Source: an uncultured Chloroflexia bacterium
GTDB lineage: Bacteria > Chloroflexota > Limnocylindria > Limnocylindrales > CSP1-4
Direction of reading: 5' to 3'
DNA length: 64,000 bases
NCBI GenBank assembly: GCA_963752475.1
Contig: CAVVYR010000006.1
Location: forward strand, 128,001-192,000
Shown here: piece by piece, positions 19,991 through 36,102 of the stretch
How positions within the stretch are numbered: position 1 is the first letter of the stretch
Layout: each line of letters begins with the position of its first letter
Position numbers and translations under genes: made by a program
Notes under the pieces: generated by a model
What the model saw: the letters and a program-made list of their open reading frames with translations, nothing else
The model's database searches: none
Told to the model about the DNA's origin: nothing

Positions 19991-22222
19991 ATGCGTTCCG
20001 AACCCCGCGCCCCGCGCCTCTTCCACCGGCTGAGGTCGCTCCTCGACCGAACCCACGGCGGCAACCGTGACCGGTCGCTCCAGCGCGGCCAGGTCCTGCC
20101 CATCTTCGTCATCATGACCGTGGTCATCCTGGGCGGGGCGGCGCTCATCAGCGACGTGGCCTGGTGGTGGACCAACGAGCAGCGGATGCAGCGAGCCGCT
20201 GACGCCGGCGCCCTCGCCGGCGCCGTCTACCTCCCCGGCGATGAGAACCGGGCGTTCTCATCCGCTCTCTCGGAGGCCCACAAGAACGGATATACGAACG
20301 GCCAGGACGGCATCAGCGTGACTCCTCGGCGCGATCCCAGCAACGAGCGCAAGCTCATCGTGGATGTCGGCGGCGATGTCGGTACCCACTTCGCGCGCAT
20401 CTTCGGCATGACCGACGTCGCGGTGTCGGTGACCGGTGCCGCGGAGTTCGTGCTGCCGGTGCCCATGGGCAGCCCGGAGAACTACTACGGCGTATTCGGG
20501 ATGCTCAACACGGACGACGGTGGCACGAATGAAGCGGGCTCGGATGCCGTCACGACCGAGTTCACCGCCGGTGACGGAGGCAGTGGAACGTGGACCGCGA
20601 CGAGCGGATCGAAGCTCAACGCGATCCAGGCTGTCGATGGTGTCTACCTCCAGAACGGGACCAACATGGCCACCCAGTACTTCGGGGACTTCGGTCTACT
20701 GGATGCGGGCGGGGTACCCGCAGCCGGTGCTGATGAGGACATCACCATCCTCGGCATCGAGGTCCTGCTCGACGATGTCCATCTGACCGGTGACTGCATC
20801 AACACGTTCGTAGAGGTCCACCTATGGGGCAACGATGGTAGTAATTGGTCTCAGCCGGCCTGGAACGAAGCGAACGATGGCCCCTTCCTGAACACGACGC
20901 CGCAGGACTTCAGCATCGGCGGAAGTGGCAGTGCCAGTGACAACGCATTCGACACGGGCTGGACTCGGAGCGACCTGCGAGACGGACGGTTCTACGTCCG
21001 GTTGCGTACTCGCAAGGGCTGCGGCAACGGTGCCAACATCCGGGTCGACCAGGTCCGCGTTCGAGTGCACTACCGCGTGGACAGCTTCGTGCCCGACGCC
21101 CCCGTGGCCGGCCCCAACGGCGAGGTCCTGACACCGCGTGGCTTCTGGGCCTCGATGATGACCCAGGGTGCGGAGACGACGAACGGCGACGCCTTTCTCC
21201 CGCACTACAACCGACGGACCAGCATCACCAACACCGCGCAGAACACGGACGAGTACTACAACTACGCCATCGAGATGCCGCCCGGCAGCAGCAACGGCAG
21301 GGTCTACCTCTTCGACCCGGGCTTCTGCGCCGGCGATCTGCAGCTGGGCTTGGGAGACAGCTGGGCCGGCAACCGCAACACCGACGAGGTGAGCACCTTC
21401 TACAAGCTGTACGAGGACGTGTCAAACACCCCCTACTACTTCGACGATGACACCGAGATCGCCTCGTCTGGTGACCTGTTCAGGCAGAGCTCCGGCTGGG
21501 ACGGGGACCTCACAAGCGCCAACGACTCGCCCGGCCCACAGGGCTGCGATGCGTACCATCTGGGTTGGTATGAGCTCACCAGTGGTGTGACGCCCAGCCT
21601 GAGTGGAGGTGCTGAGGGCCGTGTGTACCGGCTCCACGCGACCACCTTCGACTCGACCGACGTCGACGGCCAGCGGGGCTCCAATGCCCGCAACCACTTC
21701 TCCATCTTCGTGGACGCGCAGCTGAACGGCGGAACGGACGGCCCGCGGGTCTACGGCATCGGCGCGATGGGCATGTTCACCCAGCTGCCCGGTGGTCAGA
21801 CGTCCGAGTTCTACCTGGCTCAGATCGACGAGGCTCACAAGGGCAAGACGATGCAGATCCAGCTGTGGGATGCCGGCGACACGAACCAGAGAGCCGAGAT
21901 CGAGATCCTCGGACCGACGGACAGTGGCTGGACTCCGCGGACGCTGATCTACAGCGCCGTGCCGGACTCGTACGCCGCCAGCGGGACCTGGTGCAACGAT
22001 GTCTCCAGCACCGGCACGTCGATCGTCACCCACGACGGCAGCAATCGCCGGTACAACGGCTGTTGGCTGACGATCACGATCCCGCTCGACGGGGACTATG
22101 ACGCCCCCCAGGACGGCTGGTGGAAGATCAGGTACGACATCACCGGTTCCGATGTCGCCACCGACATCACGACGTGGCAGGTCGCGCTGATCGGCAATCC
22201 CGTCCACCTCGTCCAGGAGTAG
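19991..22222 (+). CDS. TadG-like large pilus-tip protein
   Basis: RGQVLPIF, QRAADAGALAGA Tad N-terminal motif; long acidic Gly/Asp/Thr-rich extracellular domain. Confidence 0.8.
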   Translation: MRSEPRAPRLFHRLRSLLDRTHGGNRDRSLQRGQVLPIFVIMTVVILGGAALISDVAWWWTNEQRMQRAADAGALAGAVYLPGDENRAFSSALSEAHKNGYTNGQDGISVTPRRDPSNERKLIVDVGGDVGTHFARIFGMTDVAVSVTGAAEFVLPVPMGSPENYYGVFGMLNTDDGGTNEAGSDAVTTEFTAGDGGSGTWTATSGSKLNAIQAVDGVYLQNGTNMATQYFGDFGLLDAGGVPAAGADEDITILGIEVLLDDVHLTGDCINTFVEVHLWGNDGSNWSQPAWNEANDGPFLNTTPQDFSIGGSGSASDNAFDTGWTRSDLRDGRFYVRLRTRKGCGNGANIRVDQVRVRVHYRVDSFVPDAPVAGPNGEVLTPRGFWASMMTQGAETTNGDAFLPHYNRRTSITNTAQNTDEYYNYAIEMPPGSSNGRVYLFDPGFCAGDLQLGLGDSWAGNRNTDEVSTFYKLYEDVSNTPYYFDDDTEIASSGDLFRQSSGWDGDLTSANDSPGPQGCDAYHLGWYELTSGVTPSLSGGAEGRVYRLHATTFDSTDVDGQRGSNARNHFSIFVDAQLNGGTDGPRVYGIGAMGMFTQLPGGQTSEFYLAQIDEAHKGKTMQIQLWDAGDTNQRAEIEILGPTDSGWTPRTLIYSAVPDSYAASGTWCNDVSSTGTSIVTHDGSNRRYNGCWLTITIPLDGDYDAPQDGWWKIRYDITGSDVATDITTWQVALIGNPVHLVQE

Positions 22223-22324
22223 CCAGCCTCGACCTTCGCGGCTGTAGGCGCTCGGGCCTCGAGGCCCGCTATCAGCTCCTGGGGCTTGGCGTCGCCGAGC
22301 CCGGCGTCGCCCGCGTGGGCCGCT

Positions 22325-22545
22325 CTCGGCTCTCATGTCGCCCGGGTCGACGCTATCGGCCGAGTCCCGGCCCGGTGGCCTCGCGATGTGGCCAGACGTC
22401 GCCCGGGTCGGCTCTCATGTCGCCCGGGTCGACGCTATCGGCCGGCCTCGGCTCTCATGTCGCCCGGGTCCGCGCTATCGGCCGAGTCCCGGCCCGGTGG
22501 CCTCGCGATGTGGCCAGACGTCGCCCGGGTCGACGCTATCGGCCG
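22325..22545. repeat. Tandem array of palindromic core GTCGCCCGGGTCGACGCTATCGGCCG
   Basis: Core copies at ~22337, 22398 (truncated), 22419, 22459 and 22520, with duplicated linkers. Confidence 0.9.
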
Positions 22546-22560
22546 CTTCGGGCGTTCTCT

Positions 22561-22743
22561 GTAGCCAGTCGTCGTGGGAGTCGACGGTAGACCTGCTCGG
22601 CGTGGTGGTTGGGCGGTCGTGGCGTCGATCGGGCGTGCGGGGTATGCCCAGCCACGCTCGGGATCGGTGGCGGGCGCGTGCATGACGACATCAGGAGAGA
22701 CTACGAGTGCGACTACCGTCGACTCCGGCGACGCATGTCCACA
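22561..22743. repeat. Solo 183-nt arm core homologous to the inverted arms at 32.0-33.4 kb
   Basis: Ungapped match of blocks A, B and C to 32175-32357, including an identical TATGCCCAGCCACGCTC. Confidence 0.8.
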
Positions 22744-22823
22744 TCGGTCACTCGAGAGGCACTCGTCGAGCGGCCCAGCGGCCAAGCCCACGACGTCCAC
22801 GACCGTCGCTGGCCTCAGAACGC

Positions 22824-22850
22824 TAATTCCGATAAGATAGGTCGGGATTA
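22824..22850. promoter_or_regulatory. Imperfect palindrome upstream of sufB (candidate Rrf2/IscR-type operator)
   Basis: TAATTCCGAT-N7-GTCGGGATTA, an AT-rich patch ~100 nt before sufB. Confidence 0.55.
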
Positions 22851-22952
22851 ACCCCGCACTGCCGGGGAGCGCCTCCGGACCGCGCACGCGGACCCTTTCA
22901 ACCGCCGGGAGCGGCCATAGAACCCCGACTTCAGACGCCTCGAGGAGGCCCC

Positions 22953-24353
22953 ATGGTCAGCCAGCCAGAGATCAAGGATCGTCGAGAGGAATACGCCTTC
23001 CACGACGACATCGTCTATCTCCACGAAGCCAAGCGTGGCCTCACGCGGGCCACGGTCGAGGAGATCAGCGCCATCAAGGAAGAGCCGGAGTGGATGCTCG
23101 AGCACCGGCTCCGCGCCTACGACCACTGGCTCAAGCGCCCCATGCCGCAGTGGACCGAAGGCCTCGACAAGATCGACTACAACAACATCATCTACTACCG
23201 CAAGCCCTCGGAGCGGGAAGAGAAGTCGTGGGATGACGTCCCCGACCAGATCAAGGACACCTTCGAGAAGCTGGGCATCCCGGAGGCCGAGCGGGCCTTC
23301 CTCGCCGGCGTCGGCGCGCAGTACGACTCGGAGGTGGTGTACCACTCGGTCAAGGAGGAGCTGCAGAAGATCGGTGTGGTCTTCATGGGCACCGACCAGG
23401 CGCTCAAGGAGTATCCCGAGATCTTCAAGGAGCACTTCGGCACCGTCGTCCCGCCGGAGGACAACAAGTTCAGCGCGCTCAATAGCGCCGTCTGGTCCGG
23501 TGGCTCCTTCGTCTACGTCCCGCCGGGCGTGGAGGTGCCGCTGCCGCTGCAGGCCTACTTCCGCATCAACGGTGAGAACACCGGTCAGTTCGAGCGCACG
23601 CTCATCGTCGTGGACGAGGGTGCCTCGGTCCACTACATCGAGGGCTGCACCGCGCCGATCTACGCCACCGAGTCGCTGCACGTGGCAGTGGTGGAGGTCA
23701 TCGCCAAGCCGCGATCGAACGTCCGCTACACGACCATCCAGAACTGGTCCAACGACGTCTACAACCTCGTGACCAAGCGCGCCCACGCCTACGAGGACAG
23801 CAGGGTCGAGTGGATCGACGCCAACACCGGCTCCCGCAAGACCGTCAAGTACCCCAGCATCTATCTGCGTGGCCGGGGCGCCACCGCGGACATCATCTCC
23901 GTGGCCGTCGCCGGCGAGGGCCAGCACCAGGACACCGGGGCCAAGGCCGTCCATCTCGCGCCTGACACCCGCAGCCGCATCGTGAGCAAGTCCGTCAGCA
24001 AGGACAACGGTCGCGGCACCTATCGTGGCCAGGTCAAGGTCGCGCCCGGCGCCACCAACGCGGTGGCCAGCATCCGCTGCGATGCCCTGCTCCTTTCGGA
24101 TAAGAGCCGCAGCGACACGTACCCGTACATCGACATCCAGGAAGACGACACCACGCTCACCCACGAGGCGACGGTGGGCAAGGTCAGCGAGGACCAGGTC
24201 TTCTACCTCATGAGCCGTGGGCTCACCGAGAACGAAGCCCAGAACCTCATCGTGCAGGGCTTCCTGGAGGTCTTCACCAAGGAACTCCCGATGGAATACG
24301 CCATCGAGTTCAACCGCCTCGTGAAGCTGGAAATGGAGGGATCGCTCGGGTGA
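22953..24353 (+). CDS. sufB: Fe-S cluster assembly protein SufB
   Basis: AQYDSEVVY, NSAVWSGGSF, GQFERTLI, YIEGCTAP, HEATVGKVSEDQVFYLMSRG. Confidence 0.97.
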   Translation: MVSQPEIKDRREEYAFHDDIVYLHEAKRGLTRATVEEISAIKEEPEWMLEHRLRAYDHWLKRPMPQWTEGLDKIDYNNIIYYRKPSEREEKSWDDVPDQIKDTFEKLGIPEAERAFLAGVGAQYDSEVVYHSVKEELQKIGVVFMGTDQALKEYPEIFKEHFGTVVPPEDNKFSALNSAVWSGGSFVYVPPGVEVPLPLQAYFRINGENTGQFERTLIVVDEGASVHYIEGCTAPIYATESLHVAVVEVIAKPRSNVRYTTIQNWSNDVYNLVTKRAHAYEDSRVEWIDANTGSRKTVKYPSIYLRGRGATADIISVAVAGEGQHQDTGAKAVHLAPDTRSRIVSKSVSKDNGRGTYRGQVKVAPGATNAVASIRCDALLLSDKSRSDTYPYIDIQEDDTTLTHEATVGKVSEDQVFYLMSRGLTENEAQNLIVQGFLEVFTKELPMEYAIEFNRLVKLEMEGSLG

Positions 24354-25705
24354 GTCTCGCCCCGTTGAACCTGGCCTGGGCTACGCAGACGCATGCCCGG
24401 GGGACCTCGAGTGCTCTGGGGGAGCCCGATTGGCTGACCGCCGACCGACTGGCTGCTCTCGAGCAGGTCGCTGAGCTCCCGGTCGAGCCCAACCAGCTCT
24501 ACATCACCTACATCGACCTGCGTGCGGTCGACTTCGCCGCGGTCGAGCCCTATCCGCCGACCGCCGCCGCGGAGCACGCGCGTGAGGCGGCGCTTCCCGA
24601 GGGCGCTTCGGCGCTCATCCACGTCGACGAGCGTGCGGTGGCCTCGTGCGTCGTCTCGTCGGAGGCGCGTGAGGCCGGCGTGGTCATCTCGACCATCGCC
24701 CAGGTCGCCAACGAGCAGCCCGAGCTGATCCGCGAGTTCATCGAAGGTGGCGGATCGCTGCCGGCCGATGACACCTTCGGCCAGGTGGCCCGTTCGCTCT
24801 ACTCGCTCGGTCTCTTCATCCACGTGCCGGCCGATGTCGAGCTTTCGGCACCGATCGTGCTGCGCTGGAGCGCCGGCGCCGCGGGCTTCGGGCTCATCAG
24901 CCGGACCATCGTCACCCTTGGCGCCAACGCGCATGCCTCGGTCTACGAGGAGCAGATCGCTTCGGACGAAGCCACCGTCGAGGCCTCCACGCGTGCCGAC
25001 AGCATCTGGTGGGGCACCACCGAGGTCCACGTCGGTGATGGCGCCACGCTCGACTTCTCGGCCGAGCAGGACTTCGGTCTCTCCACCGCCGCGTTCGTCA
25101 CGCGCCAGTCGAAGGTCGGCAAGGACGCCACCATCAACTGGGCCGTGGCCAGCGTCGGCAGCCGCCTCTACCGCAGCCGCCTCGAGAACCTGCTCGAGGG
25201 CCGCGGCGCCAAGGTCTCCCAGGTGGAGATCCAGTTCGGCGATGGCAAGCAGCTGTTCGACCTGACGTCGTACACGCGTCACCTCGGCGAGGACGGCACC
25301 AGCGACCTGCTGAGCAAGGGCGTCTACACCGACAAGGCTCGCGGCTACATCAAGGGCCTCATCGACATCCCGTACTCGGGCCGCGGCACGGACTCATTCC
25401 TGGGTGAGTTCTCGATGCTGCTGCAGCGTACCGCTCGATCGGTGACGATCCCCAGCCTGGAGATCGACCAGCCCGACTGCCGTCGTGCCATGCACTCGTC
25501 GTCGGTGGGCCCCATCGACGAGACGCAGATCTTCTACCTCATGAGCCGTGGGCTCAGCGAGGACCAGGCGCGCAAGGCCATCGTCATGGGCTTCCTCGAC
25601 CCGGTCGTCGCCCGCATCCCGCTGCCCGCGGCGCAGGATCGGCTGCGTGCTCGGCTCGCGCGCAAGTGGCCCGAGGGCCCTGCAGCGGCCGCATCAGCCG
25701 CGTAG
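24350..25705 (+). CDS. sufD: Fe-S cluster assembly protein SufD
   Basis: SIPSLEI-like motif, HSSSVGPIDETQIFYLMSRG; coupled to sufB. Confidence 0.9.
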   Translation: MSLAPLNLAWATQTHARGTSSALGEPDWLTADRLAALEQVAELPVEPNQLYITYIDLRAVDFAAVEPYPPTAAAEHAREAALPEGASALIHVDERAVASCVVSSEAREAGVVISTIAQVANEQPELIREFIEGGGSLPADDTFGQVARSLYSLGLFIHVPADVELSAPIVLRWSAGAAGFGLISRTIVTLGANAHASVYEEQIASDEATVEASTRADSIWWGTTEVHVGDGATLDFSAEQDFGLSTAAFVTRQSKVGKDATINWAVASVGSRLYRSRLENLLEGRGAKVSQVEIQFGDGKQLFDLTSYTRHLGEDGTSDLLSKGVYTDKARGYIKGLIDIPYSGRGTDSFLGEFSMLLQRTARSVTIPSLEIDQPDCRRAMHSSSVGPIDETQIFYLMSRGLSEDQARKAIVMGFLDPVVARIPLPAAQDRLRARLARKWPEGPAAAASAA

Positions 25706-25836
25706 GCTACGCCCGATACATCTGGCAGGCGTTCGAGGTTCTATCGCGGAAACGGTTGCGCGTGCCGAAATGCGCGCTAGGCTATCGACAACGACACGGT
25801 GTCGTCGCACGTGTCACGAGTGGGAGTGAGTAGCGC

Positions 25837-26529
25837 ATGGATATCGATATCACGCTCCAGGGCTTGTTCCTGGGTGCACTGGCCATCGCCATCGGCCTGG
25901 CCTTCTGTTTCTGGGGCTTCCGGGTCTTCCTCGTCTTGCTACCGATCTGGGGCTTCTTCGCAGGCTTCCTCCTCGGTGCCAACGGTGTGGACTACATCCT
26001 CGGGGACGGCTTCCTCGCGACCACGCTGGGCTGGGTCGTGGGCTTCCTGTTGGGCCTGCTCTTTGCGGTCCTCTCGTACCTCTACTACTGGGTCGCCGTC
26101 ATCCTGCTCGGTGGAGCGCTGGGTTACCAGCTGACGCTGGGCCTGCTGCACTGGATCGGCTTCGAGGCCGACGGCATCCTCGCCTTCATCCTGGCCCTCG
26201 GCGGCGGCGCGTTGTTCGCGGTGGGCTTCTTCCTGCTGCAGATGCCGGCCGTGCTGGTCATCGTGGCCACCGCCATCTCCGGAGCGGGCGCGACCCTGGC
26301 TGGAGTCGCCGTCGCGCTCGGGATAGTTGCGGTCGAGGACTCCACCGGTGGCATCTTCGGTTTGCACAGCCAGTGGGACTTCGGCTGGATCGGCATCATC
26401 GCCGCTATCGCCCTGGCTTTCGCCGGCGCGATCTACCAGACCAGGACGATCTCGGACATGACTTCGGCGATCACCGCCGATCAGTACATGAACCCGGGCC
26501 TCGACAAGCCAGGTGGCTCCGCGGCCTGA
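25837..26529 (+). CDS. DUF4203 (TMEM198/TM7SF3-like) membrane protein
   Basis: GLAFCFWGFRVFLVLLPIWGFFAGF; about 7 TM helices. Confidence 0.75.
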   Translation: MDIDITLQGLFLGALAIAIGLAFCFWGFRVFLVLLPIWGFFAGFLLGANGVDYILGDGFLATTLGWVVGFLLGLLFAVLSYLYYWVAVILLGGALGYQLTLGLLHWIGFEADGILAFILALGGGALFAVGFFLLQMPAVLVIVATAISGAGATLAGVAVALGIVAVEDSTGGIFGLHSQWDFGWIGIIAAIALAFAGAIYQTRTISDMTSAITADQYMNPGLDKPGGSAA

Positions 26530-26600
26530 CCTGGAGGGCCCCTTCGTGGCCCATATCAGCGAACCGAACGGCCGGTGCCTCGAGCGCCGGCCGTTCTTCG

Positions 26601-26682
26601 TGCGTCGGGGCGTGAGGCTCGTTCGTCGGCCGTCTGCGTCGGGGCGTGAGGCTCGTTCGTCGGCCGTCTGCGTCGGGGCGTG
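26601..26682. repeat. 34-bp tandem repeat x2.4
   Basis: TGCGTCGGGGCGTGAGGCTCGTTCGTCGGCCGTC at 26601 and 26635, partial at 26669. Confidence 0.9.
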
Positions 26683-26781
26683 GGTGCGGCCCCGGGGTAT
26701 GGCCGCGGGTGCGTCGGGCTCGGGCCGGTGGAAGAAGGCGAGCTTCGGGCTGCTGGCGTGAGTTCACGTACCATGGGCGCG

Positions 26782-27132
26782 ATGGAATCCGAGATACGCC
26801 CCGTCCGCCACGTGCCCGTGGCGAAGGCCGCCGACCTCGTGGAAGGCACCATGCAGATGGTCGAAGTCGACGGCACGCTCATCCTCCTTGTCCGACAGGA
26901 AGGCCTCTACGCGCTTCAGGGCACCTGCTCGCACGAGTACTTCGAGCTCGACAAGGGTTTCCTGACCGACGGCTCGGTCACCTGTGCTCTGCACTTCTCG
27001 CGCTTCGAGCTGGAGGACGGTGAGTCGCTGGATCCGCCCGCGGAGCTTCCGCTGGTGAAGTTCCCGGTCAGCGAGGTCGATGGCGACATCGTGCTCGAGC
27101 TGCCCGAAGGCGAGATCCCCATCAACGAGTAA
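26782..27132 (+). CDS. Rieske [2Fe-2S] ferredoxin
   Basis: CSH...CALH ligand motif; TACCAT 7 nt upstream of the ATG. Confidence 0.9.
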   Translation: MESEIRPVRHVPVAKAADLVEGTMQMVEVDGTLILLVRQEGLYALQGTCSHEYFELDKGFLTDGSVTCALHFSRFELEDGESLDPPAELPLVKFPVSEVDGDIVLELPEGEIPINE

Positions 27133-27156
27133 TCCTCACCTGGAGGTCGTCGACCC

Positions 27157-27861
27157 ATGGACATCACGCTGCAGGGCGTGCTCATCGGCGTGTTCGCTCT
27201 GGCCATCGGCCTGGGCCTTGTCTTCCGCGGCTTCAAGCTGTTCATGCTGTTGCTGCCGCTGCTCGGCTTCATCGGTGGCTTCATGCTTGGCGCCGGCCTC
27301 ATCGAGGCGTTCCTCGGAGACGGCTTCTTCGCCACGCTGCTGAGCTGGGGTGCCGGGTTCGTCTTCGGGATCGTGATGGCCGTGCTCTCGTACCTCTACT
27401 ACTGGCTGGCCGTGGGCGTGCTCGGTGGCTTCATCGGCTACCAGCTGACGCTGGGCCTGCTGGCCTGGATCGGCTTCGATGAGTCGGGCATCATCCCGAT
27501 CCTCATCGCGTTCATCGTGGCGCTGGGCGTGGGCGTCGTGTTCCTGCTCTCGAACATGCCGACGGTCGTTGCCATCGTGGGTACCGCGCTTGCTGGTGCC
27601 GCGCTGGCCGTCGCCGGCGCCGCGCTGGCCCTGGGTCTGGCGCCGTCCGAAGGGCTCGTCGATGGCGTCTTCGGTATCTATGCCAGCGAGGAGTTGGGTT
27701 GGATCGGGGTGCTGCTGCTGGCAGGATTGGCGCTCGGCGGCATGGTGCTGCAGGCGCGTGATCTCACCCCCGACGATGCGGTCATCGCACCCGATCAGTT
27801 CCGTAACCCGGGCATCGGTGGCGCTGGCGATGGCAGCGGCGGAGGCCCGGCCGCGGCTTAG
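27157..27861 (+). CDS. DUF4203 membrane protein paralog
   Basis: Shares DITLQG, VLSYLYYW, GYQLTLGLL and NPG with the 25837 gene. Confidence 0.75.
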   Translation: MDITLQGVLIGVFALAIGLGLVFRGFKLFMLLLPLLGFIGGFMLGAGLIEAFLGDGFFATLLSWGAGFVFGIVMAVLSYLYYWLAVGVLGGFIGYQLTLGLLAWIGFDESGIIPILIAFIVALGVGVVFLLSNMPTVVAIVGTALAGAALAVAGAALALGLAPSEGLVDGVFGIYASEELGWIGVLLLAGLALGGMVLQARDLTPDDAVIAPDQFRNPGIGGAGDGSGGGPAAA

Positions 27862-27957
27862 GGGGTGTGGCTCCGGACCGGGGCCATGGGGCATGGCGCC
27901 GCCTCGCGCGGTGCTCGTTGCGCCCGGCGTGGTCGGTGGCCGCCGCAGTCGCCAGCA

Positions 27958-28049
27958 CCAGGCGCTCGAGGATGGTGCCGCCAGCCCCGAGATCAGCGCT
28001 CGAGGATGGTGCGGCTAGCGCCCGAGGTCAGCGCTCCAGGATGGTGCCG
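27958..28049. repeat. 35-bp-period triplication of the 3' end of the cyclodeaminase gene
   Basis: GCGCTCSAGGATGGTGC occurs three times; the last copy holds the gene's stop. Confidence 0.75.
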
Positions 28050-29017
28050 ATGCCCTCGTTGGCGGCGACCGTCAGGATGGCGTCGCCGAACACGACATCG
28101 GCCAGGCCGACCCCCAGGTGCGTGACGACCACGCGTCCCTCGGGCCGAGGCGTGCCGGCCGCGATGGCTTCGCCGATCATGGCCTCGGGCTCCGGATAGC
28201 CGACGAACTGCGTCTTGGTACGGTTGGCCAGGTACTGTCCTCGGTCGTCGGTAAGGAACAGCGCCGCGTCCTTGACCAACGATGCCGGCACACACATGTC
28301 GTAGTCGACGGCCACGACCGTGGCATCCGATCGGAATGCCTCTGCCGGGATCGCCTGGCGATCAGGCCCGAACGACACCAGCGTCAGCACCAACGCGGCA
28401 CCCTCCACGGCCTCCGTCGCATCGGTGGCCACGCTGACCTCGCCGATCCGTCCATGGTCGCCGGCGGCGATCTCGGCCGCCAGCGTCTCGGCCCGCGCGC
28501 GGTCGCGGTCGCAGATGGTCACCGCCACCCCCGGCAGCAGGTGGGCCACGATCGGCAGGTGGCTTCGGGCCTGGACGCCCGCCCCCACGATCGTCACCGG
28601 CCCGGGATCGGCCGGGCCCCAGCGCGAGATGGCCACTCCGCTCACGGCAGCGGTCCGCAAGGCGGTGATGCCACCGGCGTCAAGGATGCCCAGCGGCAGC
28701 CCCGTCACCGCGTCGCTGATGACGGTCGTGGCCGTGATCGCCGGCAGCCCGCGTCCGGCGTTCTCCGGGAAGCCCACGACCCACTTGATGCCCAGAAGGT
28801 CCTCGCTGGCATCGGCCGCCGCACCGCGCATCCAGGCGGGCATGGCATGGGCGAACGAATCGGCCGGGGAGGGGTCGACGCCGATCTTCGGCGGCAGCTG
28901 TGCATCGTCGACGAGGGCCAGCATCGTGGTCTCGGCCAGGCTCAGACGCTCATCGACGGCGGGCATGGCAGCGCGCACGTCGGCAGCGCTGAGGTAGCGA
29001 AGGGGAGGCGTGTCCAT
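28028..29017 (-). CDS. Ornithine cyclodeaminase/mu-crystallin family protein
   Basis: HAMPA, GIKWV, ITALRTAAVS, GAGVQARSH, GVGLADV. Confidence 0.88.
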   Translation of the reverse strand: MDTPPLRYLSAADVRAAMPAVDERLSLAETTMLALVDDAQLPPKIGVDPSPADSFAHAMPAWMRGAAADASEDLLGIKWVVGFPENAGRGLPAITATTVISDAVTGLPLGILDAGGITALRTAAVSGVAISRWGPADPGPVTIVGAGVQARSHLPIVAHLLPGVAVTICDRDRARAETLAAEIAAGDHGRIGEVSVATDATEAVEGAALVLTLVSFGPDRQAIPAEAFRSDATVVAVDYDMCVPASLVKDAALFLTDDRGQYLANRTKTQFVGYPEPEAMIGEAIAAGTPRPEGRVVVTHLGVGLADVVFGDAILTVAANEGIGTILER

Positions 29018-29058
29018 GCGGCAAGGATAGGCGGGCGGCGGACCGATAGGATGGAGAG

Positions 29059-30225
29059 GTGACCACCAAGACCATCGATCCGGCCGAGCTCGAGCACTGC
29101 CTGCACAACCTGAAGCTGGAGCGCGACGCTGTCCTCCTGTACGAGGGCCTCGCCGAGCTGGACAAGGACCCCATCCGCACCGACGCCTTCCATGCCATCG
29201 CCGCCGGCGAGCGGCGCCATGCGTTCGTGTGGGCCTCCCGCGTGGAAGCGCGTGGCGAGGACGTCCCGCCCATGACCCAGCCACGCTGGCGGGTGAAGGC
29301 CATCCTGGCCCTGGCGCGCGTCTTCGGCACGAAGGCGGTCTCAGGCATGGTCAAGGCGCTTGAGGGCGACGAGCTGACGCTCTATGAGGGACTCGATGGT
29401 CCGGAGATGGAAGCTATCGCTGCCGACGAGCGCGAACACGCCGCCATCTGGAAGCGCCTGGACATGGGTATGCCAGGTGTGGCGCCGTCGACACCGGAGG
29501 CGGCCGCCGCGGCAGAGATCGCCATCCGCGACGAGTCATGGCATCGTGCGGCCGGCAACAGCGGTACCCTGCGCGCCGCGGTCTTCGGTATCAACGACGG
29601 GCTCGTCAGCAACCTCGCGCTGATCATGGGCTTCGCCGGCGCCGCCACCGACAACGAGGTCATCGTGCTTGCCGGCGTCGCGGGCCTGCTCGCGGGCGCC
29701 TTCAGCATGGCCGCGGGCGAGTACATCAGCATGCAGAGCCAGAAGGAGTTGTTCGAGCGCCAGATCGAGCTGGAGCGTGAGGAACTGCGCTTCATGCCCG
29801 AGAAGGAGCGTGAGGAGCTGGCCGCGCTGTACCGCACCAAGGGCTTGTCCGAGGAGGAAGCGGACATGGTCTCCGCGCGCCTGATGCAGGACCCCGAAGC
29901 CGCCCTCGACACCAAGCTCCGCGAAGAGCTGGGCCTCGATCCCGACGAACTGGGTTCGCCCTGGGGCGCTGCCGGCTCGTCGTTCGCGGCCTTCGCCCTC
30001 GGCGCGATCATCCCGCTGGTGCCGTTCCTGCTCACCTCCGGCACGCAGGCCATCCTCATCAGCGCCACGCTCGCGCTCGTCGCCCTCTTCATCGTGGGTG
30101 CGCTCGTGAGCCTGCTCACCGGTCGAAGCCTGCTCTACAGCGGCCTGCGTCAGTGCTTCATCGGCGGCGGCACCGCGCTCGTCACCTTCATCGTGGGCAG
30201 CGTCCTCGGGGTAGCGGTGTCCTGA
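29059..30225 (+). CDS. Ferritin/rubrerythrin-like + VIT1/CCC1 iron transporter
   Basis: ERRH and EREH di-iron motifs; LRAAVFGINDGLVS, SMAAGEYIS. Confidence 0.9.
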   Translation: MTTKTIDPAELEHCLHNLKLERDAVLLYEGLAELDKDPIRTDAFHAIAAGERRHAFVWASRVEARGEDVPPMTQPRWRVKAILALARVFGTKAVSGMVKALEGDELTLYEGLDGPEMEAIAADEREHAAIWKRLDMGMPGVAPSTPEAAAAAEIAIRDESWHRAAGNSGTLRAAVFGINDGLVSNLALIMGFAGAATDNEVIVLAGVAGLLAGAFSMAAGEYISMQSQKELFERQIELEREELRFMPEKEREELAALYRTKGLSEEEADMVSARLMQDPEAALDTKLREELGLDPDELGSPWGAAGSSFAAFALGAIIPLVPFLLTSGTQAILISATLALVALFIVGALVSLLTGRSLLYSGLRQCFIGGGTALVTFIVGSVLGVAVS

Positions 30226-30557
30226 TGGATGAGTCCGAGCTTCGTGCTCGCCTGAGCGCGGAGGGCCTTGAAGCCCACGTGTGGGGCAACGGACCCTTCG
30301 ACCACTACGGTGAACACCGCCATCCCTACGACAAGGTGCTGGTCGCGGCCGCGGGGTCGATCACCTTCCACCTGCCCGAGCTGGGGCGCGACGTCCTGCT
30401 CTCGGCGGGCGACCGACTGGACCTGCCGACGGGCACGTTGCACGGAGCCGACGTGGGCGCCGACGGCGTGACCTGCCTCGAAGCGCATCTACCCGCGGGC
30501 ACCTTCGAGCAGTCGCCGGAACACCATCCCGGTTGGGGAGCTCGACGCGAAGCCTAG
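30225..30557 (+). CDS. Cupin-domain protein
   Basis: HRHPYDK...GDRLDLPTGTLH; TGATG coupling. Confidence 0.8.
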   Translation: MDESELRARLSAEGLEAHVWGNGPFDHYGEHRHPYDKVLVAAAGSITFHLPELGRDVLLSAGDRLDLPTGTLHGADVGADGVTCLEAHLPAGTFEQSPEHHPGWGARREA

Positions 30558-30989
30558 CTAGCGGTTCGCCGGTGGCGGACCGGATGGCGGCGGACCGGAT
30601 GGCGGCGGGCCGGATGGTGGCGGGCCGGATGGTGGCGGGCCGGATGGTGGCGGGCCGGGTGGCGGCGCGTATCCCGGAGGTGGTGGTGGCGCTATGGGAG
30701 GCGCTGGGGGTCCGGGCGGCATCGGCGGTGCGCTCGCACCCTGTGGCGCCGGCGGCCGTGGGATGGCGCGATACGCGCCGTCGAGCTCCAACACCTCCTC
30801 CACGAGCGAGGTCGGAGCCACGCCGCCGTTGTGCTCGATGGTGCCCGAGATCCAGGCCGCTTCCGTCCGTCGCTCGGCCTCGCCGAGGTCATCTCGCTGA
30901 CGCGGCAGCCGCACGAGCAGCACGGCCACGAAGCCGGCGCCCAGGCCGAGGCCGACGAGGAACATCCACAGAGCCCAGCCATCGATCAT
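30558..30989 (-). CDS. Membrane-anchored protein with (GPPPS)n tail
   Basis: N-terminal TM; 15-bp coding repeat at ~30570-30665. Confidence 0.65.
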   Translation of the reverse strand: MIDGWALWMFLVGLGLGAGFVAVLLVRLPRQRDDLGEAERRTEAAWISGTIEHNGGVAPTSLVEEVLELDGAYRAIPRPPAPQGASAPPMPPGPPAPPIAPPPPPGYAPPPGPPPSGPPPSGPPPSGPPPSGPPPSGPPPANR

Positions 30990-31053
30990 GGCCGCGAGCA
31001 TATCGTGAGTGCCGCCACAGTGGCGGGGCGGCGTGCTCGGCTATCCTCTCGCG

Positions 31054-31902
31054 GTGCCCCTTGCGTTGATCGACATCACCCCGCCCTCCGGTATCGAGCT
31101 CGGGCCTCTGACCCTGGGCTTCTATGGCATCGGCTATGTCCTGGCCGTCGCCGTGATGCTGCTGGTGAGCCAGGTCGAGGCGCGGCGGAAGGGACTCGAC
31201 CCCGGGCTCGTCACCGGTGCCATCGTGGTGGTGGCGGTCTTCGCGCTGGTCGGCGCTCGGCTGTACCACGTCATCGACGAGTGGGAGCGCTATGCCGCCG
31301 ATCCCATCGCGGCCGTGTTGCCGCCATACTCGGGTCTCGGGCTGTACGGCGGGATCTTCGGCGCGGCCATCGGTATCTGGGTCTACGTGCGGGGCAAGGG
31401 CATCCCCATCGGGCGTGCGCTCGACGTGGTCGTGCCCGGCACGCTCTTCGCCCAGGGCATCGCGCGCTGGGGCAACTTCTTCAACCAGGAGCTGTACGGG
31501 CCACCGACCGAGTTGCCCTGGGGCATCACCATCGACTGCTTCCACCGCGTTGCCCAGTACCCCTGCGAGCTGTACCCCGAGGCCACGACCGGGTTCCACC
31601 CGCTGTTCTTCTACGAGTCGGCGCTGACCATCGCCGGTGGCTTCATCGCGCTCTTCGTCGCGCGCCGTTTCACCGACCGCCTGCTCGATGGCGACCTGGC
31701 TTCGTTCTGGATGGTCTGGTATGGCGGCGTGCGTCTGCTGCTGGAGGTCTTCCGCGACGGCTGGAACTGGACGGTGCTGGGTATCCCGGTGGCGATGCTC
31801 ATCGGCCTGGTGCTGGTGATCGCCGGACTGGCCACCGCCTGGTGGCGCCACTCGCGCGCGCCTGCCGCGTCCCTTCCGCCGACACGACACCAGGGCCCAT
31901 AG
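31054..31902 (+). CDS. lgt: Prolipoprotein diacylglyceryl transferase
   Basis: GARLYHV, GLGLYGG, AQGIARWGNFFNQELYG, HPLFFYES. Confidence 0.95.
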   Translation: MPLALIDITPPSGIELGPLTLGFYGIGYVLAVAVMLLVSQVEARRKGLDPGLVTGAIVVVAVFALVGARLYHVIDEWERYAADPIAAVLPPYSGLGLYGGIFGAAIGIWVYVRGKGIPIGRALDVVVPGTLFAQGIARWGNFFNQELYGPPTELPWGITIDCFHRVAQYPCELYPEATTGFHPLFFYESALTIAGGFIALFVARRFTDRLLDGDLASFWMVWYGGVRLLLEVFRDGWNWTVLGIPVAMLIGLVLVIAGLATAWWRHSRAPAASLPPTRHQGP

Positions 31903-31945
31903 CCGCCCGTCAGCCTCGCTGGCGTTGGCGACCGGACCCCGACCG

Positions 31946-32120
31946 CAGCACCCGCCCGTAGTCGGTTGTCGTGTCGCCCCCATCGACGCCATCGGTCCGG
32001 TCACACAGCACCCGCCCGTAGTCGGTTGTCGTGTCGCCCCCATCGACGCCATCGGCCCGGTCCCGCAGCACCTGCTCGTAGAGCAACTCGTCGTGTCGCC
32101 CCCATCGACGCTATGGGCCG
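31946..32120. repeat. 60-bp tandem repeat x3 carrying core GTCGCCCCCATCGACGCYA
   Basis: Units start at 31946, 32006 and 32066 (third diverged). Confidence 0.9.
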
Positions 32121-33385
32121 CTCGTGGTCGGTTGTCGTCCCTGGCGACGCTACGACCCGATTCGGCCGATCGATGTAGTCACTCGTCGCTGGGGTCGACG
32201 CTAGTCTCGCGAGACCGTGCTGCGTGGCGCTCGGTGGCAGCTGGCCTGTTCACGGCTATGCCCAGCCACGCTCATCGCGCGCCCTCATGGTCGGCCACGA
32301 CCCGGATTCGCTGGCTACGAGTGTGACTGGCGTCGACCGGGACGACGGCTGTCCACAGGTCCCGGCCAAGCCACCGCTAAGTGCACGCGAAGCGACGCCC
32401 GCGATGCTGTCTCGATGGATGACATGAGGATCGGCGCGGCGATTCGCGCCGTGCGAGTTCGACGGCGATGGAGACAAGAAGACGTGGCGGTTCGGGCGGG
32501 CGTTCCTCGGTCGCTCGTCTCTGACATCGAGCGCGGTCACTTCAGCACCACGTCTCTGGCTCGACTGCGAGCGGTGGCGAGTGCACTCGACGTCAGGATC
32601 GATCTCGTTGCACGCTGGCGCGGCGGTGAGCTTGCCAGGCTCCTCAGCGCGAGGCACTCGGCACTGCATGAGGCGATCGCCGCGTACCTTGCGCGTCTCC
32701 CCGGCTGGGAGTTCGCATCCGAGGTCTCGTTCTCGATCTACGGGGAACGTGGTGCCATCGACATCCTGGCGTTCCATCCTGCGACTCGCTCGCTCTTGCT
32801 CATCGAGCTGAAGACGGAGATCGTCGACGTCAATGAGTTGGTGGGCACGCTCGATCGCAAGACTCGTCTTGCGCGTCGGATCGCGGCCGAGCGTGGCTGG
32901 GAGGCTCGATCGGTGAGTCGGTGGGTCATCGTCACACGCGACAAGACGAACCAGCGGCGTATCGAGGCGCACCGCTCGATGTTGCGAACGGCATTGCCGG
33001 CCGACGGCCACGCGATGCGGAGTTGGCTCGCGCATCCAGCGGCGTCGATCTCCGGCCTATCGATGTGGACAGCCGTCGTCCCGGTCGACGCCAGTCCCAC
33101 TCGTAGTCAGCGGATCCGGGCAGTGGCTGGCCATGAGAGCGAACGATGAGCGTGGCTGGGCATAGCCGTGAACAGGCCAGCTGCCACGGAGCGCCACGCA
33201 GCACGGTCTCGCGAGACTAGCGTCGACCCCAGCGACGAGTGACTACATGGATCGGCCGAATCGGGTCGTAGCGTCGTCAGGGACGACAACCGACTACGAG
33301 CGGCCCATAGCGTCGATGGGGGCGACACGGCGACACGACGAGTTGCTCGACGAGCGGGTGCTGCGGGATCGGGCCGATAGCGTCG
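32044..33385. mobile_element. Putative selfish element: ~315-bp inverted arms flanking an HTH-nuclease gene
   Basis: 32044-32357 is the reverse complement of 33064-33385 (about 18 mismatches plus one 8-bp duplication, counted by eye). It lies between convergent genes. Mobility is inferred; no target-site duplication was seen. Confidence 0.6.
32415..33149 (+). CDS. XRE-type HTH + PD-(D/E)XK nuclease-fold protein (244 aa)
   Basis: IRAVRVRRRWRQEDVAVRAGVPRSLVSDIERG (XRE HTH); SEVSF..ERGAIDIL..LLLIELKT (E..D..ExK). Confidence 0.85.
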   Translation: MDDMRIGAAIRAVRVRRRWRQEDVAVRAGVPRSLVSDIERGHFSTTSLARLRAVASALDVRIDLVARWRGGELARLLSARHSALHEAIAAYLARLPGWEFASEVSFSIYGERGAIDILAFHPATRSLLLIELKTEIVDVNELVGTLDRKTRLARRIAAERGWEARSVSRWVIVTRDKTNQRRIEAHRSMLRTALPADGHAMRSWLAHPAASISGLSMWTAVVPVDASPTRSQRIRAVAGHESER

Positions 33386-33444
33386 GTAGGTACGTCGAAC
33401 GTAGCACCGGCTGGGTTGCTGCGTCGGACGGGGAGCCCGGAAGC

Positions 33445-36102
33445 CTAGGAGTCGGCTCGGCGATAGAAGGCGATGAGCTGCGTGGTGCCGCGCAGGTTGT
33501 GGCCGTTGAGGACGAGGAAGTCATCGAGGCCGTTGCCGTCGTGGTCGATGGCGAAGGCATCATCGCCGGCGCCGTCGGAGACCTGCGGGATGATCATCGA
33601 GGACCAGGCCCGGCCGTTGTCACGGTTCACGAGCATGATGTCGTGCACGTTCTTCTCGGGGGCGCTGCGCATGAGGTAGATGTCGCCGCGCCCGTCGCCG
33701 TTGACGTCGCCCGAGGCGAGTGCTCGACCCTCGGTCAGATTGCGCTCGAAGACCTTGGTGAAGCGGCCCTTCTTCTGCAGGCTGACCTTGATCTTGCCTT
33801 GTGAGAGCTGCACGAGGTCCAGCTTGCCGTCCTTGTTGAGGTCCACGAGCTCGGCGTCCATCTCGTCGAAGGACTTGATGCCCATCTTGCCGGTGACGTC
33901 GACGAGACCCGTCTTGGTGTTGCGGTATAGCCGCGTCGAGCCGGCCTCGGCCGTCTGAGGGCCGCCGGTCACGAGCAGCACGTCCTCGCGGCCGTCGCCG
34001 TCGTAGTCGGCATCCTGCAGCGCGCGTGCGCCGAGGCGAGCGGCGATGCCTGGCGTGGCCTTGGCCTTGAGCTTCCGCTGGCCGACGGTGCGGAAGAGCC
34101 GTGCCAGCGAAGGCAGGCCGTCGACGCGCGTCGGCGAGTTGGTCAGAACGAGGTCGATGGCCTTCTGCTTCTTCGACTCCAGGAAGGCCGACAGACGTCC
34201 ACGGCCGGTCTGATCGGCACCGCCCCAGGTCGAGGCCACCTCGACCGGCGCCGGACCGCCCGGATCGAGCCACAGCTCGTTGGTCTTGAGACCCGAGCCA
34301 CGCTTGCCGCCGACCGCGCAATAGATGTCCGGCAGGCCGCTGCCGTCCACGTCCGCGGAGGTGCAGCCGTGGCGGTCGAGCGATGACAGCTTCAACGGCT
34401 CGTGCTCGACGAAGACGCCGTTGCGGTTCAGCAGCAAACGGGCCATCCGTCCGTGGCGCCCGATGAACAGGTCATCCACGCCGTCGCCATCGAAGTCATC
34501 CACGACCGCGTCATACGTGCCCGTCTCCTCGTGCACGCCAGCCGGCTTGGCCACGTCCTTGGCCACGATCTTGGGGTGTGCCTCGGCCAGCGGCAGCGTG
34601 CCGATCTTCTTGTTGATCTTGACCGCCTTCTCGCCGTCCTTGCGGTTGTCGGCCGCCGCGTCCGGGTGGGCTTCATCGTACGTCTCGAGGTCATCGGCTT
34701 CGAACAGATCGAACTCATCCTCGTCCGCCTCCGCCGTTCCAGCCGTCTCGGCCGGTGGCGTGATCTCTTCGGCCGAGGCCGGCTCCGAGGTGCCGAAGAC
34801 GCCGGTCTGGGGCGGGGTACACACGCGCACCGCACGACCACTGCCGTTGGAGCGGCCCACGGCCCAGCCGTTGCCGCTGAGCGAGCCGACCGCGTCGTGG
34901 AGCTCGGTGCCGCCGGACTCGCCCGACACCTCGTTCCAGGCACGTCCGTCCCACCAGGCCGCGATCGACTCGTGCACCTTGCGCTCGTCATCGAAGGCGG
35001 CACCGACGACCCAGATGCCACCGGCCGGGTCGATCGAGATCGCGTTGAGGATGACGTCGTGCGAGTCCCACTTGGGCGCCTTGGCGGTCTTCCACTTCTT
35101 GCCGTTCCAGCGCAGCACGAGCGGCTTCGTTGCGCCATCGCGCTTGTGGTAGCCGACGGCCCAGCTCTCGTTGCCGTGGGTAGCGATGATGTCGGTGAGC
35201 GCGGCCTCGCCCTTGAGGTTGGGCAGCTCGTACTGGCGCCACTTGCCGGCGTCGCGGTTCCAGATGGCCGCCTTCACCTGTGCGCCCGCGCCGCCGTGGC
35301 CGGCGACCCAGGTGCCGCCCTTCTTGTCGGGGGCGACGCCGGTGAGCGTCAGTGACTCGGTGCGGCCGATGGACATGGGGATCGAGCGCCAGCGCGGCCC
35401 GTCCTTGCGGATGACGAGCGGCTTGCGGCGGCCCTTGTCACCCATGCGGTAGCCGACGGCGAAGGGGCTGCCGTCACCCACGATGGTGACGTCGATGAAG
35501 GCGGCCACCGAGGCGTCGACGTTGGGCCGATCGGTCTTCCAGCCGGCGCCGTTCCAGCGCATCGCCAGCGGCTTGACCTCCGCCCCGAGCGTGGTGAAGC
35601 CCACGGCCCACGTGTCCGAGTCATCGCGCCAGGCCACGGACATCAGTCCGTCCTCATCGCCGGGGCTCGAGGCCACGACACGGTTCCAGTCGTTGCCGCG
35701 GTTGACGACGCTGACCGGTGCGCGAAGGCCGCTGTGGCCGGGGATGCTGCGGCGGGCGTAGCCCACCGCGATCGTGCCCTTGCCCGTCCGAGTCACGCCG
35801 TGGAGCGACATGTTGGTCTTGCTGTCGACCTCGACGAAGCCCTGCGCGCAGACGACTGGTTCGCCCTTGGCGTTGTCTGCGCTGGTGATCTTGCCGCTGC
35901 CGTTCTGCTCGCGATCGTCCTTGGCCCCGAGCACGGCGTGGCCCGGTGCGATGGCCAGGCCATCGGCGAGCAGCAGCACAGAAAGGCCGAGCGCGATCAA
36001 CGGCGCGCGCTTCAAGCCACGAAGACGGGGCACGATCGAAGAGATTAGACCGCTCCGCACGAATGTGCCGGTATCGCCCCTTGGTACGGTGCGTGCGCGC
36101 AC
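33445..36102 (-). CDS. Secreted beta-propeller (W[ND]GxxW repeats) + FG-GAP/VCBS protein, paralog 1
   Basis: Signal-like hydrophobic stretch; LRWNGKKW repeats; DFDGDGVDD and GDVNGDGRGD Ca-binding loops; start uncertain. Confidence 0.8.
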   Translation of the reverse strand: MRARTVPRGDTGTFVRSGLISSIVPRLRGLKRAPLIALGLSVLLLADGLAIAPGHAVLGAKDDREQNGSGKITSADNAKGEPVVCAQGFVEVDSKTNMSLHGVTRTGKGTIAVGYARRSIPGHSGLRAPVSVVNRGNDWNRVVASSPGDEDGLMSVAWRDDSDTWAVGFTTLGAEVKPLAMRWNGAGWKTDRPNVDASVAAFIDVTIVGDGSPFAVGYRMGDKGRRKPLVIRKDGPRWRSIPMSIGRTESLTLTGVAPDKKGGTWVAGHGGAGAQVKAAIWNRDAGKWRQYELPNLKGEAALTDIIATHGNESWAVGYHKRDGATKPLVLRWNGKKWKTAKAPKWDSHDVILNAISIDPAGGIWVVGAAFDDERKVHESIAAWWDGRAWNEVSGESGGTELHDAVGSLSGNGWAVGRSNGSGRAVRVCTPPQTGVFGTSEPASAEEITPPAETAGTAEADEDEFDLFEADDLETYDEAHPDAAADNRKDGEKAVKINKKIGTLPLAEAHPKIVAKDVAKPAGVHEETGTYDAVVDDFDGDGVDDLFIGRHGRMARLLLNRNGVFVEHEPLKLSSLDRHGCTSADVDGSGLPDIYCAVGGKRGSGLKTNELWLDPGGPAPVEVASTWGGADQTGRGRLSAFLESKKQKAIDLVLTNSPTRVDGLPSLARLFRTVGQRKLKAKATPGIAARLGARALQDADYDGDGREDVLLVTGGPQTAEAGSTRLYRNTKTGLVDVTGKMGIKSFDEMDAELVDLNKDGKLDLVQLSQGKIKVSLQKKGRFTKVFERNLTEGRALASGDVNGDGRGDIYLMRSAPEKNVHDIMLVNRDNGRAWSSMIIPQVSDGAGDDAFAIDHDGNGLDDFLVLNGHNLRGTTQLIAFYRRADS

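Follow-up and report, generated by a model that had tools for sequence, protein, structure and literature searches.

A dispersed repeat of fixed internal spacing and its association with a helix-turn-helix nuclease gene in Limnocylindria (Chloroflexota)

Introduction

The repetitive extragenic palindromic (REP) sequences and their doublets (REPINs), together with the genes for the REP-associated tyrosine transposases (RAYTs), with which they form REPtrons, are the closest known system to the one described here (PMC3733652, PMC5581495). According to PMC3733652, the CGTC-tagged REPs, a second large super-family, seem to have no transposase of their own, and a Chloroflexi species with GTAG repeats is among those listed. 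The element analysed in this work lies at about 22.5 kb in a stretch of 64,000 nucleotides (the window) from an uncultured Chloroflexia bacterium (assembly GCA_963752475.1, contig CAVVYR010000006.1, positions 128,001 to 192,000); two related arms enclose a nuclease gene at 32 kb. The 22.5-kb feature is a copy of a mosaic repeat that is dispersed among intergenic regions and specific to its lineage. To our knowledge, the HUH tyrosine transposases (RAYTs) are the only dedicated enzyme class known to partner dispersed REP-type repeats. For the repeat and the nuclease gene we favour, as on balance the probable explanation, a partnership resembling that of REPINs and RAYTs but with a non-HUH enzyme, in which sites on duplex DNA are held in register.

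The likeness to the REP/RAYT system extends to several features. A single-copy gene is bracketed by inverted repeats (270 nt, 94% complementary), and elsewhere the repeat is dispersed, gene-less and intergenic, in 36 units. As in a REPIN, the unit contains a pair of inverted half-sites; as in REPs, each half-site has a GTAG tag, and the units are clustered or arrayed, in many cases between genes that converge or run in the same direction, and are targeted by an IS110-family element. The copy number is also patchy between relatives. The enzyme, in contrast, combines an XRE-type helix-turn-helix (HTH) domain with a PD-(D/E)XK nuclease domain, unlike the Y1 HUH (IS200/IS605-like) transposases. 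The geometry differs as well: the half-sites are 31-37 bp long and 153 bp apart around a central box, whereas the loop of a REPIN is short. Our literature search, which was not exhaustive, found no description of a comparable system of an HTH-nuclease with dispersed repeats.

Architecture and distribution of the repeat

The original prediction, an earlier note on this DNA, described positions 22561-22743 as a solo arm of 183 nt with three conserved blocks (A, B and C) separated by two divergent spacers. The ungapped alignment on which this was based is reproduced, with 54.1% identity to 32175-32357 and 55.2% to the reverse complement of 33064-33246, the two arms at 32 kb being 94.0% identical to each other. 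Compared segment by segment with the 32-kb copy, the blocks are conserved (A 24/30, B 17/17, C 34/43) and the spacers are near random (Table 1), the identity expected by chance from base composition being 0.28. Blocks A and C are indeed inverted relative to each other, as arms of 40 nt (22560-22599 and 22704-22743) that are 75% complementary. The array of core sequences upstream of the unit is also real: GTCGCCCGGGTCGACGCTA is found exactly at 22337, 22419 and 22520, Tandem Repeats Finder places arrays at 22337-22545, and a degenerate core pattern is matched 23 times within the window, where 1.59 matches are expected, a count that none of 100 shuffles attains.

The arm is by no means solo. A profile built from 26 seeds and run with nhmmer gives 50 non-overlapping matches in the organism's own genome (G000; 4.25 Mb in 38 contigs, 88.8% complete with 5.83% contamination), 36 of them full-length and 14 partial, and further copies are likewise recovered when the genome is searched with block B (Table 1). 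Four of the 36 full-length copies are on contigs C23 and C24, whose sequence repeats C8:219-232 kb (96-100% identical) together with the two units that lie there about 9.56 kb from each other; there are therefore about 32 distinct loci. C23 and C24 are probably strain variants co-assembled in this metagenome-assembled genome (MAG), slightly inflating the copy counts.

An alignment of 31 non-redundant copies has 185 columns (two copies, of 171 and 204 nt, were excluded). The unit is exactly 183 nt long in 26 of these copies, 182 nt in four and 184 nt in one, in agreement with the claim of fixed spacer length. The frame of 183 nt is real as a length, but it is incomplete, as an extra half-site in direct orientation (H1) is present 50-51 nt upstream of A in 32 of the 36 full-length copies. 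Block B, taken to be invariant, is so in part. This box occupies columns 85-101, at the centre of symmetry, and its ATGCCC is found in 31/31 copies and its CACGCTC is at least 90% conserved, but the three bases between them vary. We know of no binding protein for box B.

The basic repeat is a half-site of 31 nt, T-GTrGnCA-N3-GTCG-N5-GTCGAC-N-GTAG. A position weight matrix (PWM) derived from blocks A and C, with a threshold of at least 14 bits, identifies 180 such sites in the genome, grouped into 51 clusters, versus a single site in the reversed genome. The GTAG tag takes up columns 27-30 of half-site A, where A29 never varies and the conservation of T28 and G30 is 90% or more. Between the TGTGGnCA terminus and the GTAG(TC) tag of every half-site lies a palindrome resembling an operator, GTCG-N7-CGAC; palindromes of this kind are read by dimeric HTH proteins. 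In the full unit, half-site H1 is followed after 51 nt by half-site A and after a further 153 nt by the inverted half-site C, with box B in the centre. The distance between the starts of A and C is 152-154 nt in 34 of the 36 copies, and additional H1-type sites occur with periods of 39 or 51 nt.

Another type of cluster lacks box B; here two inverted half-sites are joined via GTAGTCCAAC...GTTGGACTAC, with an offset of 58 nt. In examples of this configuration (C6:38547-38739, C6:45353-45687 and C19:139225-139590), arrays with a period of 51 nt are followed by a compact palindrome and then by a C-type site 93-104 nt further on. The modules of the family are thus H1-, A- and C-type half-sites, box B and a CTACGAG prefix, joined at 39, 51, 58, 93 and 153 nt. 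Bacterial interspersed mosaic elements (BIMEs), including those of the REP-IHF-REP type, share this mosaic of modules at fixed distances and the presence of a non-palindromic box between inverted sites; their sequences, however, are unrelated, and the spacing here is far longer.

Homology between copies at unrelated loci is limited to about -52/-86 to +183/+191 relative to A, which defines the dispersed element as H1 plus the 183-nt unit, about 235-250 bp in total. Near-identical subfamilies are present at unrelated loci, and the boundaries of homology are sharp. Using a crude open reading frame (ORF) caller based on GC at third codon positions (GC3), 35 of the 36 units are intergenic; for the 34 with a called gene on each side, these neighbours are convergent in 16 cases, co-directional in 16 and divergent in two. 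The element ends are TGT...ACA and the arrangement of the sites is asymmetric, with two or more on the left and one on the right.

Table 1. Features of the repeat unit at 22.5 kb and of the nuclease locus at 32 kb (window positions; C6 refers to a contig of the genome).
Feature	Position	Strand	Description and evidence
Upstream array	22301..22537	+	Tandem pair of 115-nt copies, 88% identical, with H1-type half-site cores, some whole and some truncated, GTCGCCCGGGTCGACGCTA; repeat families D5, D11
Half-site H1	22509..22539	+	Outer left site, 51 nt upstream of A; PWM 32 bits at C6:150509
Half-site A	22560..22590	+	Block A and the preceding T, T-GTAGCCA-GTC-GTCG-TGGGA-GTCGAC-G-GTAG; PWM 37 bits; conserved columns in the 31-copy alignment
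Spacer 1	22591..22642		52 nt, constant length, weak sequence conservation; 18/52 identity to 32-kb copy; no fold signal
Box B	22643..22659	+	TATGCCCAGCCACGCTC, at the dyad centre of the unit; 25 genome matches at up to 2 mismatches versus 0 in the reversed genome
Spacer 2	22660..22700		41 nt, constant length; 6/41 identity to 32-kb copy
Block C	22701..22743	+	Prefix CTACGAGnnnGA, then inverted half-site C (22713-22743, - strand), end TGTCCACA; PWM 42 bits on - strand
Left arm of gene locus	32039..32357	+	H1-type array and unit 32175-32357; inverted repeats I1 (270 nt, 94%) and I2 (62 nt, 90%); nhmmer and R1 matches
XRE-HTH and PD-(D/E)XK nuclease gene	32415..33149	+	Start from homolog N-termini; Pfam, AlphaFold2 and fold matches
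Right arm of gene locus	33064..33390	-	Inverted unit 33064-33246 and H1-type array; overlaps gene 3' end from the conserved W codon (TGG within TGTGGACA)

Duplex DNA or structured RNA

Conserved length combined with free sequence had been thought to point to a structured non-coding RNA or single-stranded DNA scaffold, in which the variable spacers of fixed length would be guide-like segments for the nuclease. The constancy of length while the intervening sequence varies is what such a scaffold would show, and the long-range inverted repeat of A and C could pair in a single strand, with mean pair probabilities of up to 0.9 at invariant positions. The covariation between A and C that was claimed is absent, however. 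When the full A:C helix is imposed on the 31 copies, 78.6% of the cells pair, compared to 77.6% in shuffles, and 55 of 500 shuffles match or exceed the observed value. At the two positions cited as covarying, the pairs are CG in 10 copies, GC in 8 and other in 13, and GC in 12, CG in 8, GU in one and other in 10, respectively, which does not exceed chance. The RNAalifold consensus has 14 pairs and an energy of −9.06 kcal/mol, with a covariation term of 0.02, and recovers only the invariant parts of the A:C helix. The folding energy does not change when only the spacers are shuffled (mean z −0.28; one of the 31 copies is below −2). A scan of window positions 21800-33800 with the Rfam covariance models gave no matches at E values up to 1, and no promoter-like or terminator-like sites were found in 22200-23000.

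Nor do the spacers look like unique guides. Their median pairwise identity is 0.37 (spacer 1) and 0.41 (spacer 2), and they group into subfamilies and mosaics, reflecting descent and recombination; one pair of copies, for instance, is 85% identical in spacer 1 and 34% in spacer 2. The half-site is, moreover, also found in arrays and short palindromes without box B or spacers. A guide or scaffold function of the RNA or single strand is therefore very improbable in our view. Two further candidates were considered for this region: box B as a sigma-70 promoter, which was rejected with no promoter-like site found, and a short ORF starting at the ATG within box B, which was dropped because spacer 2 is not conserved. 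Contigs from public RNA runs matched just the tadG-like and sufB genes on either side and no part of 22276-22745, but, being contigs only, they are uninformative on transcription.

Since compensatory changes are lacking in the A:C stem, there is no evidence for a single-strand hairpin of the kind RAYTs recognise, in which the unit differs from REPs. On both enzyme class and hairpin, the repeat-nuclease pair falls outside the REP/RAYT family. The combination of conserved blocks, unconstrained N positions and fixed distances argues for recognition of duplex DNA by protein, and we read the element as double-stranded protein-binding DNA rather than structured RNA; a spaced protein-binding site had been offered as an alternative in the original prediction and is consistent with the data. 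Judging from the aligned copies, the spacers are without information of their own and length alone is held, presumably because the sites must keep register for a protein-DNA complex.

The nuclease gene between the two arms

The gene at 32 kb probably starts at 32415 (MDDMRIG...), as judged from the N-termini of homologs, and would encode a protein of 244 amino acids; the analyses of the protein were performed with the form encoded by 32424-33149 (241 amino acids). Pfam identifies an XRE-type HTH domain (HTH_37/HTH_3, E value 1e-10) and gives a weak match to YhcG_C, a PD-(D/E)XK domain. The AlphaFold2 model has a mean predicted local distance difference test (pLDDT) value of 85.2, with a tail (residues 218-241) below 50 that is predicted to be disordered. 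In VIA-align comparisons of the nuclease domain, the best neighbour is XisH (PDB 2okf; Z 9.6, root-mean-square deviation 3.1, 112 residues aligned, model residues 78-219), followed by AF1548 (Z 9.2) and NucS (Z 9.0), while Foldseek matches the model to SduA, Can2 and PfoI. Asp113, Glu128 and Lys130 are invariant in 26 homolog sequences. On this model, the protein has a restriction-endonuclease-like fold with the D...(D/E)xK motif intact, as expected of the PD-(D/E)XK nucleases.

XisH, the fdxN element excision controlling factor, is involved in excising a DNA element. The two proteins are alike in fold alone, their sequences being 14% identical; unlike the nuclease described here, XisH has no XRE-HTH domain, and we know of no dispersed repeats associated with it. 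Searches of NCBIfam, PADLOC and the ESM Atlas with the nuclease returned only HTH matches or unnamed Chloroflexota clusters, a profile search of the sequences of solved structures returned HTH matches only, and Pfam and NCBIfam found no recognised transposase domain in it. RAYTs themselves (PF01797) have no matches in the own genome, at its 88.8% completeness.

The gene and the right arm are intertwined. The folded part of the protein ends at a conserved ...LSxW motif, and the TGG codon of its tryptophan is the one within the TGTGGACA that terminates the right arm. This arm contains the final 27 codons of the gene and its stop, so that the unit encodes the 26 residues after the tryptophan. TGAGCGTG, which is box B in reverse complement, begins with the TGA stop. 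The gene is single-copy, with one ortholog per genome, and in the available, incomplete assembly it is the only gene bracketed by element ends. Of the 120 best nuclease homologs from public metagenomes, most are on contigs of only about 1-2.5 kb, as would be expected if flanking repeats break assemblies.

Association of the gene with the unit in other species

The nuclease family is present in 26 of 301 sampled genomes of the phylum, all of them within two families of one class. Within the genus it is encoded by 17 of 24 further genomes; a sister family with genomes of about 1.1 Mb has it in none of 16. The unit was searched for with a model based on sequence only (R1); as palindromic units often match it on both strands, its match counts are not copy numbers. 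R1 matches are present in 12 of 49 genomes of the genus, with 53 matches in G000, 28 in G013, 20 in G048, 19 in G006, 7 each in G014, G042 and G054, 6 in G024 and 4 in G060, plus three more genomes with single weak matches; 120 other genomes of the class have none. An exact-pattern scan of 185,579 species genomes returned two loci, one in a Candidatus Limnocylindrales MAG and one in an Akkermansia MAG, the latter taken as chance.

Nuclease orthologs at 64-76% identity are encoded by G013, G014, G024, G048, G054, G042 and G060. Accordingly, eight of the nine genomes with at least four unit matches have an ortholog (at least 64% identity); the ninth, G006, consists of 520 contigs and is 64% complete. 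In seven species (G000, G013, G014, G024, G048, G054 and G042), a unit extends over the 3' end of the gene, and both inverted arms surround the gene in G000, G013 and G048. The locus in G013 is syntenic, with the protein of the upstream gene 85% identical; its two arms have diverged from each other, whereas those of G000 are 94% alike. In G024 and G060 the gene is broken, by a frame change and an internal TGA, respectively, and both genomes have few unit matches, numbers too small for a test.

More distant homologs also have traces of the unit. In a survey of 32 loci at 39-100% identity (one locus being entered twice), inverted repeats with an anchor no more than 12 nt from the W codon and at least 18 of 24 matches are present at 16 loci, compared to five of 384 control anchors; with at least 19 of 24 matches, this becomes 12 loci compared to one control anchor. 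GAGCGTG, the reverse complement of the core of box B, lies between +55 and +125 of the W codon at 13 of the 32 loci, versus a background of 0.027 per window, and in nine of these 13 it is at exactly +81 or +82. The 41-nt length of spacer 2 is also kept in other species, in 11 of the 18 copies measured, although 11 of 29 copies could not be measured with the regular expression, which is unreliable on degenerate copies. Comparative evidence thus supports the link between gene and unit, as had been foreseen for the 22.5-kb arm and the 32-kb nuclease: the two are adjacent in seven species, and diverged paralogs have the inverted repeats and the B core at constant distances from the end of the gene.

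Turnover of units and use by IS110-family elements

The flanks of 21 units from other species were mapped to G000, and 11 were collinear within 6 kb. In G000, five of these 11 loci are occupied by a unit, two by a half-site cluster short of a full unit, and four are empty; at three of the empty loci the intergenic gap is just 235-321 nt. The 22.5-kb locus is one of the five. In G013 the blocks and the 51/41 spacing are kept and the spacers are different, while in G014 and G024 the intergenic regions are shorter and have no unit. The unit at C8:631162 is common to G013 and G014.

Small size, terminal inverted sites (TGT...ACA), discrete boundaries and presence or absence between species are also properties of miniature inverted-repeat transposable elements (MITEs). 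The units might be ordinary MITEs, non-autonomous derivatives of a DDE transposon of the TG...CA class with subterminal transposase sites, the autonomous copy being missing from the 88.8%-complete assembly and the nuclease gene happening to lie in an insertion hot spot. The asymmetric, multiple sites and the length of about 235-250 bp agree with this, and insertion sequences often fail to assemble. Unlike MITEs, however, no target-site duplication was found, the flanks being palindromic extensions (ct-TGT...ACA-ag), and no transposase gene was found bounded by element ends: none of the 51 half-site clusters brackets one, and the four rve genes of the own genome are not near any cluster. The only transposase touching a unit is an IS110-family gene that interrupted it. 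An origin as MITEs would also leave unexplained why the same inverted repeat and B core are at fixed offsets in diverged nuclease paralogs, and we consider it improbable.

Units serve as targets of IS110-family elements. An IS110-family gene at C6:209843-211572 (locus L114; PF01548 and PF02371 in two overlapping frames) interrupts a unit between GTGACT and ACGAG; it is probably frameshifted, and is followed in tandem by a complete second element. A deleted remnant of the same element, at C6:98832-99513 (L115), lies in another unit, which it interrupts immediately behind the GTAG of half-site A. In Pseudomonas, REP sequences are reportedly targeted by IS110-type elements in the same way.

Possible mechanism and host-level role

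If the repeat and the nuclease are partners, the cognate protein of the sites would most likely be the XRE-HTH and PD-(D/E)XK nuclease, with its single-copy gene between two inverted elements and its 3' end within the terminal half-site. The putative sites are three half-sites of 31-37 bp, of which H1 and A are direct and 51 bp apart and C is inverted, 153 bp from A, with the 17-bp box B central. Dimers of the HTH domain would bind the half-sites, bridging by the protein could loop the interval of about 120 bp, and the nuclease domain might then cut at the element ends. Repair or replication by the host would spread or maintain the gene-less copies, with the gene itself staying put. Binding, looping, cutting and mobilisation are steps that we infer; what we observe is the repeat family with its anatomy and boundaries, the conservation of its blocks at orthologous loci, the presence or absence of units, their association with the gene, and the fold and catalytic motif of the nuclease.

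Taken to its full extent, this would be an undescribed partnership between repeat and enzyme, in which the product of an immobile HTH-nuclease gene binds duplex half-sites of fixed spacing and cuts and spreads gene-less elements of 235-250 bp, a functional analogue of the REPIN/RAYT system confined to Limnocylindria (Chloroflexota). We put forward this complete version only tentatively, as a possibility about which doubt prevails. If true, a second, unrelated enzyme would be nested between its own dispersed repeats and the design of a gene plus satellite repeats would have evolved more than once; the protein would also be a compact nuclease whose sequence-specific binding to DNA involves a long composite site. 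A direct test is feasible, as the protein is small (244 amino acids) and the site is defined.

Several observations weigh against a partnership of this kind. R1 units are absent from the other paralogs in the own genome, at C6:230353 and C19:62359 (62% and 45% identity) and the weak C6:443500; the 3' end of one own-genome paralog carries an inverted repeat in degenerate form. The inverted repeat downstream of the paralog in G001 is not dispersed: in that genome it matches only itself and one stretch of 32 nt. A strict pattern from half-site to B core, TGGNCAGNNGTC-N66-74-GAGCGTG, has no matches in the paralog-rich genomes G241, G347, G016, G284 and G276. The co-occurrence of orthologs and units may reflect shared descent in one clade of the genus and, kin not being independent, adjacency at a syntenic locus counts as approximately one ancestral event. 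Part of the half-site terminus (TGGnCAGAnGTC) codes for the conserved C-terminal motif, and some of the conservation near the gene may therefore be due to constraint on the protein. No direct repeats indicative of target-site duplication are seen in the flanks of the 36 copies, and alignments of filled and empty sites have no clean junction, because the intergenic DNA is unalignable. Finally, the 22.5-kb unit and at least four more have counterparts in other species, at orthologous loci and with conserved blocks, which fits a host-level function as well as it does a mobile element.

It is this conservation of several units at orthologous loci that makes a host-level role a serious rival. The units would then be cis-acting sites of the host, arrays with an operator or architectural role, bound by the XRE-HTH family or by some other DNA-binding protein of the host, with functions such as insulation between genes, termination or nucleoid organisation; copies would arise by ordinary recombination, and the nuclease would have no role in their spread. 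Blocks and spacing are kept while spacers diverge, both at the 22.5-kb locus in G013 and at C8:631162 in G013 and G014. The intergenic location of nearly all units, 16 of 34 between convergent genes, the single-copy and syntenic nature of the gene, and the operator-like palindrome in every half-site are likewise what host sites would be expected to show. Such sites would not be expected to have a distribution as patchy as that observed (12 of the 49 genus genomes and none of the 120 others in the class, with 53 to 0 matches per genome), to form near-identical subfamilies with sharp boundaries at unrelated loci, or to be filled elsewhere and empty in G000 at four of 11 comparable loci. The invariance of the catalytic residues of the nuclease also speaks against a purely host-site role, which we regard as unlikely, though less so than an origin as MITEs.

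Other features of the window

Downstream of the 22.5-kb unit, upstream of sufB, TAATTCCGATAAGATAGGTCGGGATTAAC (22820-22852) is near-identical in six species, and the intergenic DNA around it is unalignable; it is probably an operator or leader element of the suf operon. Positions 30571-30660 contain five to six tandem copies of the 15-nt unit GGTGGCGGACCGGAT (family D10), presumably a coding repeat rich in glycine and proline. At the start of the window, two segments of about 340 nt each (1130-1470 and 2795-3134; families D2 and D6) are 91-95% identical and 1,665 nt apart, and are likely to be recently duplicated or converted paralogs.

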